A stretch of 62,497 bases of DNA, from assembly GCA_002763075.1 (NCBI GenBank), contig PFDB01000016.1, forward strand, positions 1-62,497. Reading direction: 5' to 3'. This document shows positions 39,591 through 55,309 of this stretch, one piece after another. The notes under the pieces were generated by a model. The model saw only the letters and a list, made by a program, of their open reading frames with translations, searched no databases and had not been told where the DNA came from. Position numbers and translations under genes: made by a program. The first letter of the stretch is position 1. The number at the start of each line of letters is the position of its first letter. Source of the stretch: Candidatus Pacearchaeota archaeon CG10_big_fil_rev_8_21_14_0_10_34_76 (GTDB taxonomy: Archaea > Nanobdellota > Nanobdellia > Pacearchaeales > GW2011-AR1).

Positions 39591-39731
39591 CGCCCCAACC
39601 GGGGATCGAACCCGGATCTTCGCCGTTCTGCGACACATGGTGTCTCTCCATTTTCAGGAGGTTGACCTTGAAGGAACCTAGGTTCCTTAAGTCGCGACAG
39701 GGCGATGTACTAACCACTATACTATTGAGGC
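39591..39731 (-). tRNA. tRNA-Asp (GUC) with a 69-nt intron in the anticodon loop
   Basis: Manual fold. Acceptor GCCUCAA/UUGGGGC; D arm GUAU-AGUGGUUA-GUAC; anticodon stem UCGCC/GGCGA with loop CUGUCGC; T arm CCGGG-UUCGAUC-CCCGG. Discriminator G; CCA not encoded. Insert lies at 37/38. Confidence 0.85.
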
Positions 39732-40364: not shown

Positions 40365-41303
40365 CTACTTTAACATTTTACTAAATTCCTTGTACTCCTT
40401 AAGCATAAGTTCCATGGTGGGTCTTAGGTCCTTTCTTTTCTGATATGCTTGTAAAGACTCATAATATTCCCTAACATTTTTCAACTGAATATTAATTGGA
40501 GGCAAACTATGTTTTATTAAAATATTGTTCATTAGCAATCTTCCTACCCTCCCATTCCCGTCAGCAAACGGATGAATTATCTCAAACTGATTATGAACAA
40601 CAGCTGCTAAAATTAAAGCGGAATACCTATTCCTATGTTTGTCATACCACTCAATTAACTCTTTCAGCAGAGATCTAACTCTTGAAGCTGGAGCTCCCTC
40701 ATGAACAATCTCACCACTTTTTGTTTTAATAACAACTTCCTCTCCCTCTTCCCTAAATCGTCCTGCAAAATTCTTAGAGTTTTTAAAAACAATTTCGTGC
40801 ATTTTTCTAATCAAATCAATGGAAATATGTTCCTTTGTTTTTCTGATATATTTTATAGCTTCATCAACCCCATAAGCTTCAGCAATATCTGATTTTGATT
40901 TTTTCTCTGGCCATTTATCCTCTTCCAGAATTTCTTTAACTTCGCCTCTAGTAAGTTCGCTTCCCTCTATTGCGTTTGTATTATATGTAAAAAGCTCAGA
41001 AAATTTTTCCCAATTTTTTTCAGACAAATGAGTTATTTTAAAATCTATTTTAGCCTCAATTTTCTTAACAAATCCTATTTCTCTTTTACTAAGTTCTTTA
41101 TCTAATGGATTTTGGATTATCTTGTGCTGATTAATCTCATCAAAAATCAATTTTTTAGCAATTTCATTTCTTTCATCAAGAAGCCCTGGAGACAAATTAG
41201 ATCCCAAAAACTTCCTTATTTTATGAACTTTTCCACCTTCTCTAAAAGAGTGAGCTAAATAGTATTTTGTCTTGCTTCCTACCTTTCTTTTTTCTAAGTG
41301 CAT
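40365..41303 (-). CDS. Fic-domain protein (class II, with intramolecular inhibitory helix)
   Basis: Canonical HPFADGNGRVGR Fic motif. Upstream TNAIEG matches the (S/T)xxxE(G/N) auto-inhibitory motif. Confidence 0.9.
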   Translation of the reverse strand: MHLEKRKVGSKTKYYLAHSFREGGKVHKIRKFLGSNLSPGLLDERNEIAKKLIFDEINQHKIIQNPLDKELSKREIGFVKKIEAKIDFKITHLSEKNWEKFSELFTYNTNAIEGSELTRGEVKEILEEDKWPEKKSKSDIAEAYGVDEAIKYIRKTKEHISIDLIRKMHEIVFKNSKNFAGRFREEGEEVVIKTKSGEIVHEGAPASRVRSLLKELIEWYDKHRNRYSALILAAVVHNQFEIIHPFADGNGRVGRLLMNNILIKHSLPPINIQLKNVREYYESLQAYQKRKDLRPTMELMLKEYKEFSKMLK

Positions 41304-49833: not shown

Positions 49834-50424
49834 TTAACTATTCTTAAATTCACCTTCAAAAACAAATTCTCCAATTGGCTTTCTTTCATTTGGATGTTCA
49901 GATTTTCTCATCCTTTCAGGTATTTTATCCAAATCTCCAGATTTCCCTATAGCAATCATGTGAACAATTTCATAATCTTCGGGAATATTCAATTCTTTTC
50001 TAGCCTTCTCAACATCATACCCGGCCATCCCATGCACTACTAAACCAAGTAAACTTCCCTGCAAGGCGAGATTCTCCCACGCAGATCCAGTATCAGACAT
50101 AAAGTTTCTATTTTCCTTATCATCCTTTGTCTTCTTGTATGCACACAAACAAACAAGTGCAGCAGCATTTCCTGCCCAAAGTTGATTAAAATCATCCAAT
50201 ATTCCAAAGAACTTATCAAACTGCTCCTTGTTCTCACTCCTGGCATAAATAAATCTCCAAGGCTGTTCATTACTGGCAGAAGGTGCCCATCTCGCAGCTT
50301 CAAAAAGAGTCATAAGCTCCTCGTCACTAATCGACTCGCCACTCATCGCCCTAGGACTCCATCTATTCAAAAATATTTCATTAATAGGATAATCTGCTTT
50401 CCTCACCTCAGAACCTTTTTCCAT
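49834..50424 (-). CDS. nitroreductase-family protein
   Basis: RWSPRAM...ARWAPSASNEQPWRF is the typical nitroreductase N-terminus. The start is set at MEKGSEV (ATG 50424). Its first 61 nt belong to the 63-bp direct repeat. Confidence 0.85.
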   Translation of the reverse strand: MEKGSEVRKADYPINEIFLNRWSPRAMSGESISDEELMTLFEAARWAPSASNEQPWRFIYARSENKEQFDKFFGILDDFNQLWAGNAAALVCLCAYKKTKDDKENRNFMSDTGSAWENLALQGSLLGLVVHGMAGYDVEKARKELNIPEDYEIVHMIAIGKSGDLDKIPERMRKSEHPNERKPIGEFVFEGEFKNS

Positions 50425-50426
50425 AA
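50364..50426. repeat. 63-bp perfect direct repeat, copy 1 (nitroreductase 5' end)
   Basis: Identical base for base to 53196-53258. Flanking bases differ on both sides. Confidence 0.9.
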
Positions 50427-50463
50427 AGTTTCCAAGCATAATTAGCTTTTATAGGTTTGGTGT

Positions 50464-51444
50464 TTAAACAGAAATAGAAGGTTCTAGATTTTTCCCATAT
50501 TTCTTTTGCAAATGCCCCACAGTAGCTTCTGCAAGCTGCTCCCAAGAAAGCCCACTTCCATGTTTCCTTGACGAGCCCCCTACAATGTTAGATCCTCCCC
50601 AACCTTCTCCCTCAGGAAGACCTTCAAGAGCATTATAAACTCCAAATAATTCATTTATGGGAAATGGAATATAAGGTGATCTCCTTCCAACAGTCCAAAC
50701 ATTTCTATTATCTGGCCTTATAGCAACAAGGCTAATATATGCATCGAGCCCCTGGGAAAATAAAAAGTACCTAGCTTCACTTCCTCCAATTTCATTCACA
50801 ATTTTGAAACCTGAAGGAGAATCATATAATATCTCATGCCTCGTATCCAATTCCCTTTTTTCAGCCTGCCCCATTACTAATTGATCAATTCTTCCAGTCA
50901 TGGACTCAAGTGTAGAACAAATAACTGCTTCATTTGCACTAGCAAGTGCCCCGCTCTTTCTTAGATCATTGTAAGGAGCAAAGATCCAATTGTGTGTAGA
51001 AAGTAAGCCGTCATCCAAATTCATAGGGTAACCTCCTCCAGTTATATCTAATTTGTCTGTAAGTTCAAGAAGCCTATTAACAATTGGAATGCTTTGTGTT
51101 CCTTCTAAAGATTTGTGTCTGTCCAAAAGCCAAACACTTAAAGCAACATCTTGATCAGGATCGTTCACATAAACAGGAATTTTAGCCAATCCGGTTTGCC
51201 AGAAAAGCGATTTCATTAAATTTCCTTTGATAGCGAACATAACTTGTCTTGCAGTAGACATTGTAGCTTCTCTTGCAACACCATCATGATGATCAAAATT
51301 GACATGCAAAGTATCTTCATCATATTTTGGGCCTCCAAGAACAACACCATCCAGAGCTATAGATCCTCTTGGAGTTTTTTTGACAAACTCATCCCAAGAC
51401 ATACTTTCTCTTGGCAAAATCCTCAAGTCAATTGTTCGAATCAT
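50464..51444 (-). CDS. hypothetical protein with DHH-like (NFDHHDG) and GGSSRKHG motifs; possible phosphoesterase
   Basis: Motif-level resemblance only. The motif order is not canonical for DHH/DHHA1. Confidence 0.35.
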   Translation of the reverse strand: MIRTIDLRILPRESMSWDEFVKKTPRGSIALDGVVLGGPKYDEDTLHVNFDHHDGVAREATMSTARQVMFAIKGNLMKSLFWQTGLAKIPVYVNDPDQDVALSVWLLDRHKSLEGTQSIPIVNRLLELTDKLDITGGGYPMNLDDGLLSTHNWIFAPYNDLRKSGALASANEAVICSTLESMTGRIDQLVMGQAEKRELDTRHEILYDSPSGFKIVNEIGGSEARYFLFSQGLDAYISLVAIRPDNRNVWTVGRRSPYIPFPINELFGVYNALEGLPEGEGWGGSNIVGGSSRKHGSGLSWEQLAEATVGHLQKKYGKNLEPSISV

Positions 51445-51513
51445 CTTCTATAAATACGAACTTTTCCGACATTTATAAGTTTAATTATGTTCATTATTTC
51501 TCCGCTATCAGAA

Positions 51514-52177
51514 CTATTTCTCCCTCAATTCCAAAAGCCTGTATTCAATCCCAGAGTCCCATTGGTTAGAAGGCTCTACATTTCTCCCAACGATTCTTGA
51601 ATCATATCCCTCTCCTCGGATAATTTTAGATAACAATCTTGGATTTCCAATATTTGGAGATGCTCCTACAAGTAATCTCCCTCCTTTAGTTAAATGATAA
51701 TGAGCTCCTTGTAAGAATCTTCTAAATGTCTGATATCCTGGATCAAAAACCGACATTTCCAAAGAGCCATTAGCAGCAAACCTAGAATCAGAAGTCAATG
51801 GTTGATTGAATAAAATAGTATCGAATCTTTTCTTAAATGGAACACCTGAAAATAAATTAGAGTAATATACGTCAACAATATTGCCTAGTCCAAAACGCAA
51901 TACATTTGTCTTCGCATTTTCAACTGCCTGGGGATTTATATCAACAGCATCAACATTTACTGAACTGCTGTAAAGTGCTGTAAAAATCGCAAGAATTCCA
52001 GCTCCAGTTCCCATATCCATAACGTCCCATAGCTCTCCAATTTTTAGGACCCGCAGGCACTTTAGCAGCAAATCCTCTTCCTATAGAGTATACGAATCCA
52101 TCTGAGCCATCAGCAAGATAATTAATACATCTTCCATCTGCTTCAAACTTAGGTACTGGCAATTCAATTTTTGTCAT
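51514..52177 (-). pseudogene. SAM-dependent methyltransferase apparently interrupted by a 1-nt frameshift near 52070-52085
   Basis: The frame starting at ATG 52177 forms an ATGA overlap with the upstream stop and encodes MTKIELPVPKFEADGRCINYLADGSDGFVYSI. The other frame continues EEDLLLKCLRVLKIGELWDVMDMGTGAGILAI (motif I) ...ILFNQPL and is blocked upstream by TAG at 52081-52083. Confidence 0.5.
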
Positions 52178-52698
52178 CTTCTCAGCCTCCACTGCACAAA
52201 ATCTATCAAAAAGACCTTATCCTGCCTAGGAACATAAATATGATTAGAGAAATTGTGGATATCATCAGGTACAAAACCGTGAGCCTTAGCTTTTGCTAGT
52301 TCTTTTCCCATAAGATCTAAGGCTCTAGCCCTCATAGAATTCTTGTAAGAAAAAAGTTCTTCTCCATTTATTCCGTCTATATATTCCATTACATAAGCAG
52401 TAAGGCCCTTGTGAAGAGTACATTCATCTAACACATCAACAGAAAAAAGTCCTTCCGGCTTAGGAACAGAAACACCAAGACCATATAGTTCCCGTGCAAT
52501 TCTAGATTCACGCCCTCCTTGAGCTCTTAACAGTTTAGATGTTCTCGAATCTAAATTATTCCAAATGTTCCAATTTCCATATACCTTAACTACAGAATCT
52601 CCTGATAAATATATAGTGCCATCGCCACCATCTTCATGAATAATTTTATTTTGCTCTAACACAACTCCAAAATCAGGCAGCCTAAAATTACTTTGCAT
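52174..52698 (-). CDS. minimal protein-kinase-like fold protein (Bud32/RIO/Kdo-type)
   Basis: SVVKVYG (beta3 Lys), YVMEYIDG hinge, HGFVPDDIHNFSNHIY catalytic loop, and VFLIDF (DFG equivalent). Confidence 0.55.
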   Translation of the reverse strand: MQSNFRLPDFGVVLEQNKIIHEDGGDGTIYLSGDSVVKVYGNWNIWNNLDSRTSKLLRAQGGRESRIARELYGLGVSVPKPEGLFSVDVLDECTLHKGLTAYVMEYIDGINGEELFSYKNSMRARALDLMGKELAKAKAHGFVPDDIHNFSNHIYVPRQDKVFLIDFVQWRLRR

Positions 52699-52837
52699 CT
52701 TCGCTACCCTCCATAGTCTTTTTTATTGAGAATTCAAATGCATGAGACCTGTTTCTAAAAACACCATTCTTCACGCCTTCGTCTATCTTATCCAGAGTGT
52801 CTTCCTCTACAGAAATACTAATTTTGTATTTAGCCAT
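52688..52837 (-). CDS. ribbon-helix-helix (CopG/NikR-like) DNA-binding protein, 49 aa
   Basis: Own translation: MAKYKISISVEEDTLDKIDEGVKNGVFRNRSHAFEFSIKKTMEGSEDAK. The beta-strand KISISV followed by two helices is the RHH pattern. 11-nt overlap with the kinase-like gene. Below the ORF-track cutoff. Confidence 0.6.
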   Translation of the reverse strand: MAKYKISISVEEDTLDKIDEGVKNGVFRNRSHAFEFSIKKTMEGSEDAK

Positions 52838-52838
52838 A

Positions 52839-52884
52839 AGTAGCAAGAAGTCATACCATTTTTAAACCTTTCTATTTTGCTACT
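52839..52884. promoter_or_regulatory. 8-bp inverted repeat (AGTAGCAA / TTGCTACT) bracketing a TATA-like box upstream of the RHH gene
   Basis: The arms lie at 52839-52846 and 52877-52884. TTTAAAAA (minus strand) at 52859-52866 sits 22-29 nt upstream of ATG 52837, which is leaderless geometry. Confidence 0.4.
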
Positions 52885-52979: not shown

Positions 52980-53129
52980 ATGGAAACAATAACAATTCCA
53001 AGAGCACAATACGAGAAAATGAAAGAAGAGATTAGGATACTTAGAAGTTCAAAACTCTACAAAAGGCTGCTTGAATTTGAAGACAACATTCAAAAAAAGA
53101 AATATTCAAGAAAGGAATTAGGATTCTAA
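52980..53129 (+). CDS. possible 49-aa coiled-coil protein (antitoxin-like)
   Basis: Own translation: METITIPRAQYEKMKEEIRILRSSKLYKRLLEFEDNIQKKKYSRKELGF. TTATATAAA at 52949-52957 lies about 27 nt upstream of the ATG. Confidence 0.35.
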   Translation: METITIPRAQYEKMKEEIRILRSSKLYKRLLEFEDNIQKKKYSRKELGF

Positions 53130-53195: not shown

Positions 53196-53258
53196 TATTC
53201 AAAAATATTTCATTAATAGGATAATCTGCTTTCCTCACCTCAGAACCTTTTTCCATAA
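53196..53258. repeat. 63-bp perfect direct repeat, copy 2 (orphan nitroreductase 5' fragment)
   Basis: The minus strand reads ATG GAA AAA ... giving MEKGSEVRKADYPINEIFLNMA, then a stop. Confidence 0.9.
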
Positions 53259-53261
53259 CAA

Positions 53262-53609
53262 TCAAAAAACCCCTTTTTTTAACACTTTCAAAAGATCATC
53301 TCTAGCATCCCTCAGAGATTTTTGCAATCCTCTAAAGTCTCTTAGAGCAGAAACCAAACCATCACCTAACTCAACATCTGCTAAATATGGTCCTTGTGGT
53401 AAACCGTTAACTCTATCAGGAATATCTCTCCTTTGAAATTCATCCATTTCTTGAAGTCCGGTGCCATTTGGACTAACTACTAAGTTAAAATCAGGAATAA
53501 ATAATTGCCCACGATCAACATGACCACATACATCTCCCTCATAACCCTGACTCACAACATAACTAATATCTTTTACCGCCTTATACGCTTTAACCATGTA
53601 AGAAATCAA
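53262..53609 (-). CDS. hypothetical protein
   Basis: 115-aa ORF with no motif. Confidence 0.45.
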   Translation of the reverse strand: MISYMVKAYKAVKDISYVVSQGYEGDVCGHVDRGQLFIPDFNLVVSPNGTGLQEMDEFQRRDIPDRVNGLPQGPYLADVELGDGLVSALRDFRGLQKSLRDARDDLLKVLKKGVF

Positions 53610-54103: not shown

Positions 54104-54826
54104 TTATTTCTTAGCTAATTTCCAAAAGACCTCAAATTGTTTTTTTTCAGTCTCAGATAGATGTTTATTCCTCATAACGATTGCGTAAACAGGTTCCCCA
54201 TATATAAGTTCTATAACCACATCTTGATAAATAATTTTAGCCGTGTTTCCGATTAATCCATTATCAATAAATTTATATTCTGTTGTTTTAGCATATTCCA
54301 AAACTCTGCCATATTTTTTGATAATCATTCTTTCAGTAATTTTATTTTCTTTAAAATAATCCAATATTTTTCTAAGATAAATTGGCTCTATTATTTCCAT
54401 CTTTTCTTCATCAATTCCAATATAAAGAATTTCGTCTTTCGGTTTTATTTCAGAAATTACCTTCTTGAAAATATTCTTTATGACATATTTCCCCTTTAGA
54501 ACTTCTACTGAAACGTCCTCGCTTCCTATCTTTTGCAGGTTTTCTAGTTCTAATTTAAGGGTTTTTAGGATGTCTACTTTATGCTCTTCTAATGCGACTA
54601 TCTGGTTTAGTTCTACTGCCCTGAAATTCTTTTTTCCTTTTATCTTTATCTCTGAAATATATCCCTTTTCTAATAACCTCTCGAGAGCATAGTAAACATA
54701 AGGACGATTTAACCCTGTCCCCTTAGCAATTTCTGTAGCACTTAAAGCTCCTTTTTTAATAAGAATAAGAAATATGCTGATCTCATTCTTTGTCAGTCCA
54801 AAGTCTTTAAGGATTTCGATGTTCAT
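54104..54826 (-). CDS. TrmB-family transcriptional regulator
   Basis: MNIEILKDFGLTKNEISIFLILIKKGALSATEIAKGTGLNRPYVYYALERLLEKGYI is a TrmB-type wHTH. I trimmed the 301-aa track ORF to ATG 54826. Confidence 0.8.
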   Translation of the reverse strand: MNIEILKDFGLTKNEISIFLILIKKGALSATEIAKGTGLNRPYVYYALERLLEKGYISEIKIKGKKNFRAVELNQIVALEEHKVDILKTLKLELENLQKIGSEDVSVEVLKGKYVIKNIFKKVISEIKPKDEILYIGIDEEKMEIIEPIYLRKILDYFKENKITERMIIKKYGRVLEYAKTTEYKFIDNGLIGNTAKIIYQDVVIELIYGEPVYAIVMRNKHLSETEKKQFEVFWKLAKK

Positions 54827-54919
54827 ATAAGTTAAAACAATTTGGATTATAAAAATCTTACTATTTTTGTAATAATTGTTACAACAATAATTTATATACT
54901 TATTTTTTAAGATCTTTCC

Positions 54920-55309
54920 ATGAAAAGCTGTAATGGAAAATGGACTGCAAGACTTCCAGCTGTAGGGGGATTCTGGCATCAAAGAAAATATAAGACTCAA
55001 CTCAAACAAATTGCAACTGAAGAAGGATTAAAAAAAGTCGCATTTAACTCTGAATTTACAGGAGAAGGAGTAAAAATAGAATATGATTCCCATTATGAGC
55101 ACTTAACTCCAAACATAAGTGGTCATGAAGAAGGTCCACATAACGTATTCAGCGGACTAAGTATTATAATTTGTTCAGAAGGAAATGATGATAAAACCAA
55201 GAAAATCACTGAACGAATTAAAGAGTATGTATGCGATCCAAGTTGGAGAGATCCTTCCTCAAAAAGATTCTCAGAGGTTTTTTATGGCTCTTCTAGATAC
55301 AACCCTTAG
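54920..55309 (+). CDS. hypothetical protein
   Basis: ORF only. Divergent from the TrmB gene. Confidence 0.3.
   Translation: MKSCNGKWTARLPAVGGFWHQRKYKTQLKQIATEEGLKKVAFNSEFTGEGVKIEYDSHYEHLTPNISGHEEGPHNVFSGLSIIICSEGNDDKTKKITERIKEYVCDPSWRDPSSKRFSEVFYGSSRYNP

Follow-up and report, generated by a model that had tools for sequence, protein, structure and literature searches.

A probable recombination patchwork of ribbon-helix-helix, mini-kinase, methyltransferase and DHH-like genes in a DPANN archaeal chromosome

Introduction

RIO kinases and Bud32/PRPK (KEOPS) are the smallest canonical protein-kinase-like enzymes. An even shorter protein of this type, kin1, is encoded in the contig PFDB01000016.1 of Candidatus Pacearchaeota archaeon CG10_big_fil_rev_8_21_14_0_10_34_76, of which the stretch analysed here, hereafter the window, comprises 62,497 nucleotides (nt). 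Its gene lies in a block (positions 50464-52837 of this 62.5-kb window) together with those of a ribbon-helix-helix (RHH) regulator, an S-adenosylmethionine (SAM) methyltransferase domain and a protein of 326 amino acids (aa) with a DHH motif, all four on the minus strand. A preliminary description of this DNA took them for one tightly coupled operon and proposed a toxin-antitoxin (TA) or defence module or, as a speculation, nucleic-acid end-healing of the Pnkp/Hen1 kind. From the comparison with related genomes it appears probable, instead, that the locus is a recombination patchwork and that the four genes are not one co-evolved TA, defence or RNA-repair system.

Kin1 shares with RIO and Bud32 the fold, the beta3 Lys, the alphaC Glu, the VPxP motif before the hinge, the catalytic D-x5-N, the metal-binding Asp of 'LIDF' and the lack of an activation loop. 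Unlike them it is much shorter, everything from alphaF onward being absent, and it does not have the N-terminal winged-helix/flexible-loop region of RIO; moreover its relatives, here called mini-kinases, form tandem arrays of paralogues, in Woesearchaeota and Nanoarchaeota only. The effector kinases OspG and NleH also have a very small kinase domain and need a partner for activity. OspG, however, is a bacterial type III effector that retains a short C-lobe and has no taxonomic or contextual link to the mini-kinases; the resemblance is one of the generic kinase core only. In HipBA, as in the present locus, the gene of a small DNA-binding protein comes first and overlaps that of a kinase-fold protein. 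HipA, on the other hand, is a PI3/4-kinase-like protein of ~440 aa and HipB a helix-turn-helix protein, whereas the present pair consists of a RIO-like protein of 174 aa and an RHH protein, and only one small clade of the mini-kinase family shows this pairing. Finally, Pnkp combines a P-loop polynucleotide kinase with an HD or calcineurin-type phosphatase and a ligase domain, and Hen1 is a distinct 2'-O-methyltransferase. The block resembles these enzymes only in an abstract mix of kinase, methyltransferase and phosphoesterase, and none of the Pnkp/Hen1 folds is present in it.

Mosaic Structure of the Block

The segments on which the argument turns are the following, in the direction of transcription:

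52838..52875, minus strand: promoter region of the RHH-kinase pair, with the TATA-like TTTAAAAA at 52866-52859; blastn homology to the related loci starts at 52875
52688..52837, minus strand: RHH-like DNA-binding protein, 49 aa from its ATG, the first gene (RHH_1/NikR matches)
52174..52698, minus strand: kin1, intact 174-aa RIO/Bud32-like kinase-fold protein (profile, model and fold search)
52012..52177, minus strand: kin2', 5' fragment (~55 codons) of a second mini-kinase (homology to proteins P0123/P0124 and to locus L012)
51514..52011, minus strand: MT', putative native part of a HemK2/Mtq2/MTS-type SAM methyltransferase (alignment to TIGR00537/PRK14968.1-3)
51471..51478, minus strand: TATA-like box TTATAAAT, read from the sequence, 27-34 nt upstream of the ATG of the DHH-like gene
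50464..51444, minus strand: 326-aa DHH/DHHA1-like two-domain protein (285 homologues; weak fold matches)

The open reading frames (ORFs) described earlier, and all the motifs quoted from them (VVKVYG, VMEYIDG, DDIHNFSN, LIDF, DMGTGAG, NQPL, FDHHDG and GGSSRKHG), are indeed present on the minus strand, and the overlap between the end of the RHH gene and the kinase gene is 11 nt, as claimed. The segments of gene origin, however, are five and not four, kin2' being the extra one. The methyltransferase-domain ORF as annotated runs from 52071 to 51514 (minus strand), with DMGTGAG and NQPL, and 69 nt separate the MT' stop from the ATG of the DHH-like gene.

Two related loci, L012 and L014, belong to 'Candidatus Woesearchaeota' assemblies whose source runs are groundwater/aquifer metagenomes. 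Their gene order is seryl-tRNA synthetase (SerRS), then, with interruptions, the RHH-kinase pair and genes of 124 aa and 187 aa, and finally oxidoreductase (minus strand), DoxX, helicase and cyclophilin. In blastn comparisons with the window the core genes (SerRS, oxidoreductase, DoxX and helicase) are 66-70% identical at the nucleotide level. Only two pieces of the block align to these loci, namely 52875-52696 with the promoter and the RHH gene (79-82%) and 52191-52012 with kin2' (82-87%), and by the same method kin1, MT', the DHH-like gene, the small ORF upstream of the block and the nitroreductase gene downstream of it are not present there.

The pieces also differ in apparent age, estimated between the window and L012 as the proportion of synonymous differences (pS, Nei-Gojobori). 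SerRS, oxidoreductase and helicase give 0.71-0.75 and the RHH gene 0.77, a value saturated like those of the core genes, and the regulator is best read as vertically inherited under strong constraint. For kin2' (52012-52177 against L012 8001-8165) pS is instead 0.25 +/- 0.07, falling to 0.10 in the second half. Local synonymous constraint does not account for this low value, because the same segment is ordinary between L012 and L014 (0.45, against 0.43-0.57 elsewhere). The comparison thus indicates that the 166-nt kin2' fragment was recently exchanged with an L012-like lineage, and the block as a whole reads as a patchwork of at least three sources.

The junction downstream of kin1 has the same mosaic character. 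The preliminary description had the kinase gene tightly coupled to the methyltransferase through an ATGA overlap. An ATG at 52177 does overlap the kin1 TGA; yet it starts the kin2' fragment and not the methyltransferase, and the claimed coupling falls with it. The 75-aa frame that it opens (52177-51950) lies +1 relative to the methyltransferase frame and runs over the methyltransferase DNA to the stop at 51950. Its first ~42 residues are 83-88% identical to the N-termini of P0123 and P0124, mini-kinases of 175-176 aa from related genomes that carry the VSVPKPEG and LIDF motifs. At the nucleotide level the window (52191-52012) matches L012 7986-8163 with 87% identity by blastn; the homology stops at 52012, and the breakpoint from kin2 to the methyltransferase lies at 52012/52011. 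In the methyltransferase ORF the 20 residues ahead of GTGAG (LLLKCLRVLKIGELWDVMDM) are an off-frame translation of kin2, and the same peptide is found in L012 and L014. Since LLLKCLRVLKIGELWDVMDM is off-frame kinase DNA, the native methyltransferase begins at motif I. Furthermore, the last 14 nt of kin1 resemble the tail of the L012 RHH gene (16/18), which points to a possible further joint just upstream of kin2'.

In the history that best fits these data, the locus would be a variable spot between the SerRS and pyridine-nucleotide oxidoreductase genes of a DPANN chromosome, where at least three unrelated units have been spliced. One would be a native operon in which a TATA-like promoter drives the RHH gene and translationally coupled tandem mini-kinases, kin1 and then kin2. 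Another would be a scar, where kin2 was cut after about codon 55 and joined out of frame to a HemK2-like methyltransferase lacking its first 26-41 residues. The third would be a complete and apparently separately promoted DHH/DHHA1-like phosphoesterase gene, of a family that is stand-alone in bacteria of the candidate phyla radiation (CPR) and in DPANN archaea. The 2.77-kb block enclosed by two copies of the nitroreductase 5' end would mark an insertion or a duplication, now fixed and single-copy.

The RHH Regulator and Its Promoter

The 49-aa protein matches Pfam RHH_1 with an E-value of 0.0035 (17.7 bits against a cut-off of 20.5, hence below the curated threshold) and the NikR N-terminal models with E 0.007-0.02, again under the curated cut-offs; a search of PDB sequences gave no match. 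Its pattern, a beta-strand (KISISV) followed by two helices, agrees with the RHH family. The earlier RHH assignment can thus be kept at the level of the fold, both scores remaining under the curated cut-offs. Orthologues lie 5'-adjacent to the kinase gene in L012 (~90-93% aa identity) and in L014 (83%), where the 11-nt overlap is identical. The coupling of the RHH and kinase genes is therefore genuine and has been kept at a syntenic site in two related genomes. The TATA-like TTTAAAAA lies ~25 nt upstream of the RHH ATG, and the promoter block ATAGAAAGGTTTAAAAATGGTATGACTT forms 28 consecutive invariant columns across the window, L012 and L014. Most likely, the RHH protein autoregulates the promoter of the RHH-kinase pair.

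Kin1 and the Mini-Kinase Family

Kin1 possesses K38, E64, the segment SVPKPEG (77-83), D146, N152 and D166, and its chain ends eight residues after D166. It has what is expected of the protein-kinase-like superfamily, that is a bilobal fold, the beta3 Lys, the alphaC Glu, the catalytic Asp/Asn and the metal-binding Asp. The preliminary description had left room for a protein lacking the catalytic residues; all of them are present. An exhaustive HMMER search (E up to 1e-3) collected 250 representatives, of which the best 150 were listed. Among these 150 the lengths are mostly 140-215 aa, and no match fell below 1e-20 except a fragment of the query itself. In a 60-member alignment N152, D166 and P79 are invariant, while K38, E64, VPxPxG, M104 and D146 are at least 90% conserved.

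The family profile retrieves from PDB RIO2 (E 6.8e-7) as well as CK2, COQ8 and OspG (E 2.5e-4 for the last), and single members match, weakly, the Pfam families APH (20/60), RIO1 (10/60) and OspG_kinase (2/60). The AlphaFold2 model of kin1 has a pLDDT of 93.7, and Foldseek relates it with probability 1.0 to PknB and also to CK2alpha', Methanocaldococcus jannaschii Bud32, Archaeoglobus fulgidus Rio1 and human PRPK, these four with TM ~0.55-0.64. Conserved residues, family profile, model and fold search thus bear out the proposal of a minimal kinase fold of the RIO/Bud32 type. Kin1 does not reach, however, the cut-offs of the families themselves, neither that of RIO (PF01163; RIO1 16.2 bits against 22) nor those of Bud32 (NCBIfam PRK14879; ~22 bits against 188-246), and no Kae1-like gene adjoins it. 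From its sequence kin1 appears equipped for catalysis but devoid of most of the C-lobe, that is of every element that would follow the DFG-type Asp. The analogy with Bud32, RIO and OspG suggests that it most likely works as an ATPase or phosphotransferase dependent on a partner.

Among species-representative genomes, those with members of the family belong to Woesearchaeota and Nanoarchaeota. Three distinct loci (L022, L023 and L030) hold two to three copies close together. Two of them, L022 (33-985) and L023 (5270-6950), contain tandem arrays with overlapping stop and start codons and no RHH gene; in L030 (5616-7386) two copies lie in divergent orientation, ~600 nt apart, again with no RHH gene. 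More generally, RHH was not found at the other 11 distinct mini-kinase loci that were fetched and is confined to the clade of the window. The two-gene architecture of a type II TA system is thus present in the window and in two related species, and not in those 11 loci. The family gave 0 matches on IMG/VR viral contigs.

The Truncated Methyltransferase

In enzymes of the HemK2/Mtq2/MTS group, motif IV, (N/D)PP(Y/F/W), binds the target amide or amine. MT' resembles these enzymes (N5-glutamine methyltransferases in the case of HemK2/Mtq2) in its Rossmann core, its motif I (GTGAG) and the spacing to motif IV, and differs from them in that the N-terminus is replaced by out-of-frame kinase sequence. 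The best models are PRK14968.1-3 (4.5e-19), the L3 Gln methyltransferase, hemK_rel_arch and Pfam MTS (3.8e-16), so that the SAM methyltransferase domain recognised in the preliminary description can be specified as one of the HemK/MTS type. All scores (49-69 bits) lie below the curated cut-offs (87-230).

The alignments cover positions 27-166 of the 179 of TIGR00537 (hemK_rel_arch) and 42-181 of the 198 of PRK14968.1-3. As a full-length HemK2/Mtq2/MTS protein MT' therefore fails, the region before motif I (26-41 model positions) being absent, and it fails likewise at motif IV, where NQPL stands instead of the canonical motif. The annotated ORF would start at a TTG (52071) or at ATGs in codons 18/20, and its first 20 codons are borrowed from kin2 DNA. 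Among 5.8 billion proteins no other relative of MT' was found, a query with a repaired 220-aa product returning only itself, P0123 and P0124. MT' is thus to all appearances a 5'-truncated remnant joined out of frame to ~55 codons of kin2; most likely it is inactive or in the course of decay.

L012 contains, downstream of kin2, a 59-aa ORF that was considered as a possible methyltransferase remnant; its peptide similarity is non-significant (E 9.6) and it matches no family, and it is left as a hint. As a separate observation, the TATA-like regions beyond the 3' end of MT' and beyond this ORF also look alike.

The 326-aa DHH-Like Protein

A homologue search with E up to 1e-3 gave 285 homologues of the 326-aa protein, the 120 best of which were listed; these 120 are 55-64% identical to it. 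The named ones come from CPR bacteria (Wolfebacteria, Moranbacteria) and Nanoarchaeota. In the metagenome loci L035-L113 two tiers of identity to the window protein can be distinguished, ~48-62% and ~34-40%. Invariant in the family are D32, H52, H53, D95, D97, D99, D133, G284, S285 and R293, with D51 conserved in at least 90%, and these residues fit a predicted DHH-type metal site and a Gly-rich DHHA1 loop.

The model of the protein (pLDDT 93.6, pTM 0.90) finds RecJ2, NrnA, NrN, PPX1, a family II pyrophosphatase, PggH and the DHHA1-like C-Ala domain of AlaRS among PDB folds, and 12 of the first 13 matches belong to the DHH superfamily; in the viral library the matches are called 'DHH family phosphohydrolase' and 'exopolyphosphatase'. 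At the sequence level, on the other hand, neither the protein nor the family profile matched anything in Pfam, NCBIfam, PADLOC or PDB sequences, and DHH (PF01368) and DHHA1 (PF02272) were absent from the window protein and from 51 family members with E up to 10. A sequence-level link of the family to DHH was accordingly rejected, and the earlier label of 'DHH-motif protein' stands on motifs and weak fold matches, not on any sequence profile.

The comparison with NrnA-type DHH-DHHA1 proteins (nanoRNase, pAp phosphatase, PggH, NrN) leads to a similar picture. Apparent common features are the two domains in ~320 aa, the long linker helix, the DHH triad, an Asp-rich NDxDQD loop with a helix after it, as in DHH motif I, and a Gly-rich GGSS...R/H C-terminal loop, like the GGGH motif of DHHA1, whereas sequence-profile similarity is not detectable. 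Unlike in the DHH superfamily, the DHH at 51-53 precedes the Asp-rich loop (94-99), which suggests that the order of the motifs may be permuted. Most likely the protein is NrnA-like in activity and uses a bound divalent metal to hydrolyse short oligonucleotides, dinucleotides or phosphoesters of the pAp type.

In 83 loci of DHH-like homologues (558 kb) tblastn found 0 relatives of RHH, kin1, kin2, MT', the small ORF or the nitroreductase. The family has no conserved neighbour in these loci, the best cluster occurring in 7/83, and the genomic contexts of the homologues are mutually unrelated. The TTATAAAT box suggests a possible independent promoter, and it is concluded from this comparison that the DHH-like gene is probably a stand-alone gene that landed at the locus. 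One match of the family was found on IMG/VR contigs (L122 5001-5945); the contig, of 392 kb and classified as 'viral', may belong to a huge phage or to a small cellular genome that was mis-called. With 0 and 1 IMG/VR matches, respectively, a viral origin of the kinase and DHH-like families was rejected. A literature search on both families yielded nothing relevant.

The Direct Repeat and the Question of Mobility

The block is bracketed by a direct repeat, and the features at its borders are the following:

53262-53609: 115-aa gene; its stop adjoins the stub in R1
53196..53258, strand not applicable: direct repeat copy R1, 63 nt, 100% identical to 50364-50426
52980..53129, plus strand: divergent 49-aa ORF of doubtful status, Lys/Glu-rich (from the ORF list; no homologues)
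50364..50426, strand not applicable: direct repeat copy R2, the 5' end of the intact nitroreductase gene
49834-50424/50439, minus strand: nitroreductase (PF00881, E 1.3e-21)

The repeat is perfect over 63 nt, has a spacing of 2832 nt, encloses 2,769 nt and is the sole repeat of at least 30 nt in the window. It consists of TT and the first 61 nt of the nitroreductase ORF. R1 encodes a 22-codon nitroreductase stub only, the ATG of which lies 5 nt past the stop of the 115-aa gene. The 'cassette' of the preliminary description therefore has a physical basis in flanking direct repeats of the att type; no recombinase, excision or empty sites accompany them. In fact, the ORF list and the library scans revealed no recombinase-like ORF inside the block, and no long inverted repeat was found. 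The divergent small ORF had been called antitoxin-like, a label that finds no support: it has no significant match in Pfam, NCBIfam, PADLOC, PDB sequences or any fetched locus, the syntenic L012 and L014 included.

Word depth in run X1 is 103 in the left flank, 200 in the repeat, 102 in the interior and 106 in the right flank; the block is integrated in single copy, and neither circles nor empty sites occur to an appreciable extent. The same arrangement was seen in every contig obtained by exact look-up of the nitroreductase or RHH protein. Separate contigs of 2,829, 2,889 and 1,946 nt had raised the possibility of an extrachromosomal circle. Because they end exactly k-1 nt inside the repeat (30, 60 and 55 nt), and because the depth of the element equals that of the flanks, they are assembly-graph breaks and not a plasmid. 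Strain variants hinted at by loose ends at 53114 and 52176 were likewise dismissed as short spurious matches, which a focused run did not reproduce.

The GC content reaches 0.406 in 50001-51000 (the DHH-like gene and the nitroreductase 5' end), tying for the maximum of the window (mean 0.340, standard deviation 0.025), and across the block it is slightly raised (0.36-0.40 against 0.34). GC at third codon positions (GC3) is like that of host genes, and composition was not taken as diagnostic of foreign origin. The repeat duplication is a real rearrangement scar. It can be read in two ways, as a Campbell-type integration of a circle carrying the nitroreductase 5' end or as a duplication during repair. 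The vertical, syntenic RHH gene inside the block argues against a simple 'foreign cassette'.

One System or Several Units

A single module of the four genes, whether TA, defence or Pnkp/Hen1-like end-healing, would act on the same nucleic-acid substrate under control of the RHH protein. In its favour, the genes run in one direction at short distances, domains for kinase, methyltransferase and phosphoesterase chemistry are all there, and the methyltransferase domain resembles mad2 of PADLOC (2.8e-18). Even so, such a module is very improbable. The four genes were not found together anywhere else, the outcome that the preliminary description had itself named first among those that would refute it: 0/83 DHH-like loci hold any partner, and the relatives carry RHH and kinase only. 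The methyltransferase lacks its N-terminal part and is joined to a kinase fragment in another frame, the segments differ in evolutionary age, and the DHH-like gene has its own TATA-like box. The end-healing chemistry fares no better, with a protein-kinase-like enzyme in place of a P-loop polynucleotide kinase, a HemK/MTS-like methyltransferase, no ligase and no co-occurrence. In PADLOC the mad2 hit is a match to the generic methyltransferase domain only, the best kinase match (PD-T4-6, E 0.03) is non-significant, and the RHH protein, the DHH-like protein and the small ORF have none; the proximity to defence islands that had been suggested as a check turned out to be a neighbourhood of housekeeping genes. 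The methyltransferase alone could be rescued if a programmed +1/-1 frameshift, or a sequencing error in an A5 homopolymer, gave one 220-aa protein from the ATG at 52177, and deletion of one A of the A5 run in CCTAAAAATTGG does merge both frames into a 220-aa ORF whose product still scores as MTS/HemK. This repair was rejected, its 5' part being a kinase N-terminus (52177-52012 is homologous to kin2 of L012/L014), and the frameshift is hardly credible: the family models align from motif I only, the extra N-terminus adding nothing, independent assemblies from many samples agree on the sequence, and run X1 shows no indel at the A5 site at ~100x word depth. A smaller unit, a TA-like or defence pair by analogy with HipBA, would have the mini-kinase as a toxin neutralised or repressed by the RHH protein, with MT' and the DHH-like gene as passengers. 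The 11-nt overlap with the small DNA-binding protein first, the retention of pair and invariant promoter in three lineages, the tandem duplication and high divergence of the family, typical of conflict genes, and the signs of recent lateral exchange in kin2' all speak for it. It is nonetheless unlikely in view of the 11 other loci without RHH, the vertical RHH at a syntenic chromosomal site, the lack of a significant PADLOC match for the kinase or of any family match on viral contigs, and the absence of an obvious toxin-binding tail in the 49-aa RHH protein.

A mobile origin deserves somewhat more attention. The block could be a non-autonomous integrated element, either cis-mobilisable or a decayed integrative plasmid, that entered the nitroreductase 5' end by site-specific or homologous recombination, with the repeats as attL/attR and the recombinase elsewhere. 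Perfect 63-nt repeats that restore the 5' end of the target gene are what this predicts; the 115-aa stop located 5 nt from the stub ATG suggests a split 115-aa/nitroreductase operon, the GC content is slightly raised, and kin2' was recently exchanged. Such an element remains a rather doubtful proposal, considering that no integrase, transposase or replication gene lies inside, that RHH and its promoter are vertical and occupy the same syntenic position in relatives that have neither the repeat nor the nitroreductase, that coverage indicates a single copy per chromosome, with neither surplus circles nor empty sites, that all recovered contigs are in the integrated form and that GC3 is host-like. 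The recombination patchwork is preferred over these alternatives as the probable explanation, and several points weigh against it. MT' keeps an open frame of 185 codons with possible internal starts, and it is conceivable that a Rossmann core beginning with motif I still binds SAM. The pS of kin2' rests on ~38 synonymous sites, the frequency of the RHH-kinase pairing was judged from 11 genome loci and a handful of exact-protein contigs, and promoter and operon boundaries were read from sequence only, no RNA run being found to contain the region. The DHH fold scores are weak (E 2.4e-3 to 6e-2, TM 0.25-0.36), the assignment otherwise coming from motifs. Finally, ~51498-51530, at the 3' end and stop of MT', matches 29 of 33 nt of L012 8785-8817, the end of the 59-aa ORF, which hints that the methyltransferase may be old at the locus. 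In that case the kin2'/MT' joint would be a deletion and not an insertion; the mosaic conclusion would stand, and part of the history would change.

Genomic Surroundings

The genes surrounding the block encode IMPDH, cyclophilin, an XPD-like helicase, SerRS, a Na+/H+ exchanger, a NUDIX protein and thymidylate synthase. Further features were noted in the window. A 141-nt tRNA (39591-39731, minus strand) is recognised by Rfam (52 bits), was missed by ARAGORN and is probably an intron-containing archaeal tRNA. At 40365-41303 (minus strand), ~9 kb from the block, a 312-aa Fic/DOC protein (PF02661, E 1.2e-20) is encoded, possibly an AMPylating toxin-like gene. The TrmB-like ORF at 54104-55009 (minus strand), 301 aa from a TTG, is probably over-extended, since gene callers assign it 240 aa on identical contigs; its extra part runs over a 129-aa ORF at 54920-55309 (plus strand).

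Significance

As a 'system' the locus is of little importance; what interest remains attaches to its fine-scale mosaicism and to two protein families. It exemplifies how a recombination scar can look like an operon when genes are adjacent, their stop and start codons overlap and their chemistries are suggestive. The mini-kinase and 326-aa DHH-like families are both unnamed and uncharacterised. One can speculate, at long odds, that the mini-kinases are the smallest self-folding members of the protein kinases and form a fast-diversifying conflict or host-interaction toolkit of DPANN archaea, used in one clade as an RHH-switched kinase TA or defence pair, and that the DHH-like protein is a permuted, unrecognised branch of DHH proteins laterally shared between CPR and DPANN and devoted to nucleotide scavenging. 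In any case, the mini-kinase family offers a test of the minimal C-lobe that a kinase fold requires. The DHH-like family, conserved at 55-64% identity across domains (CPR/DPANN), may reasonably be proposed to recycle nucleotides or oligonucleotides in organisms unable to make nucleotides. Moreover, with a 166-nt kinase fragment that appears far younger than its surroundings, the locus documents fine-scale lateral exchange between Woesearchaeota lineages.

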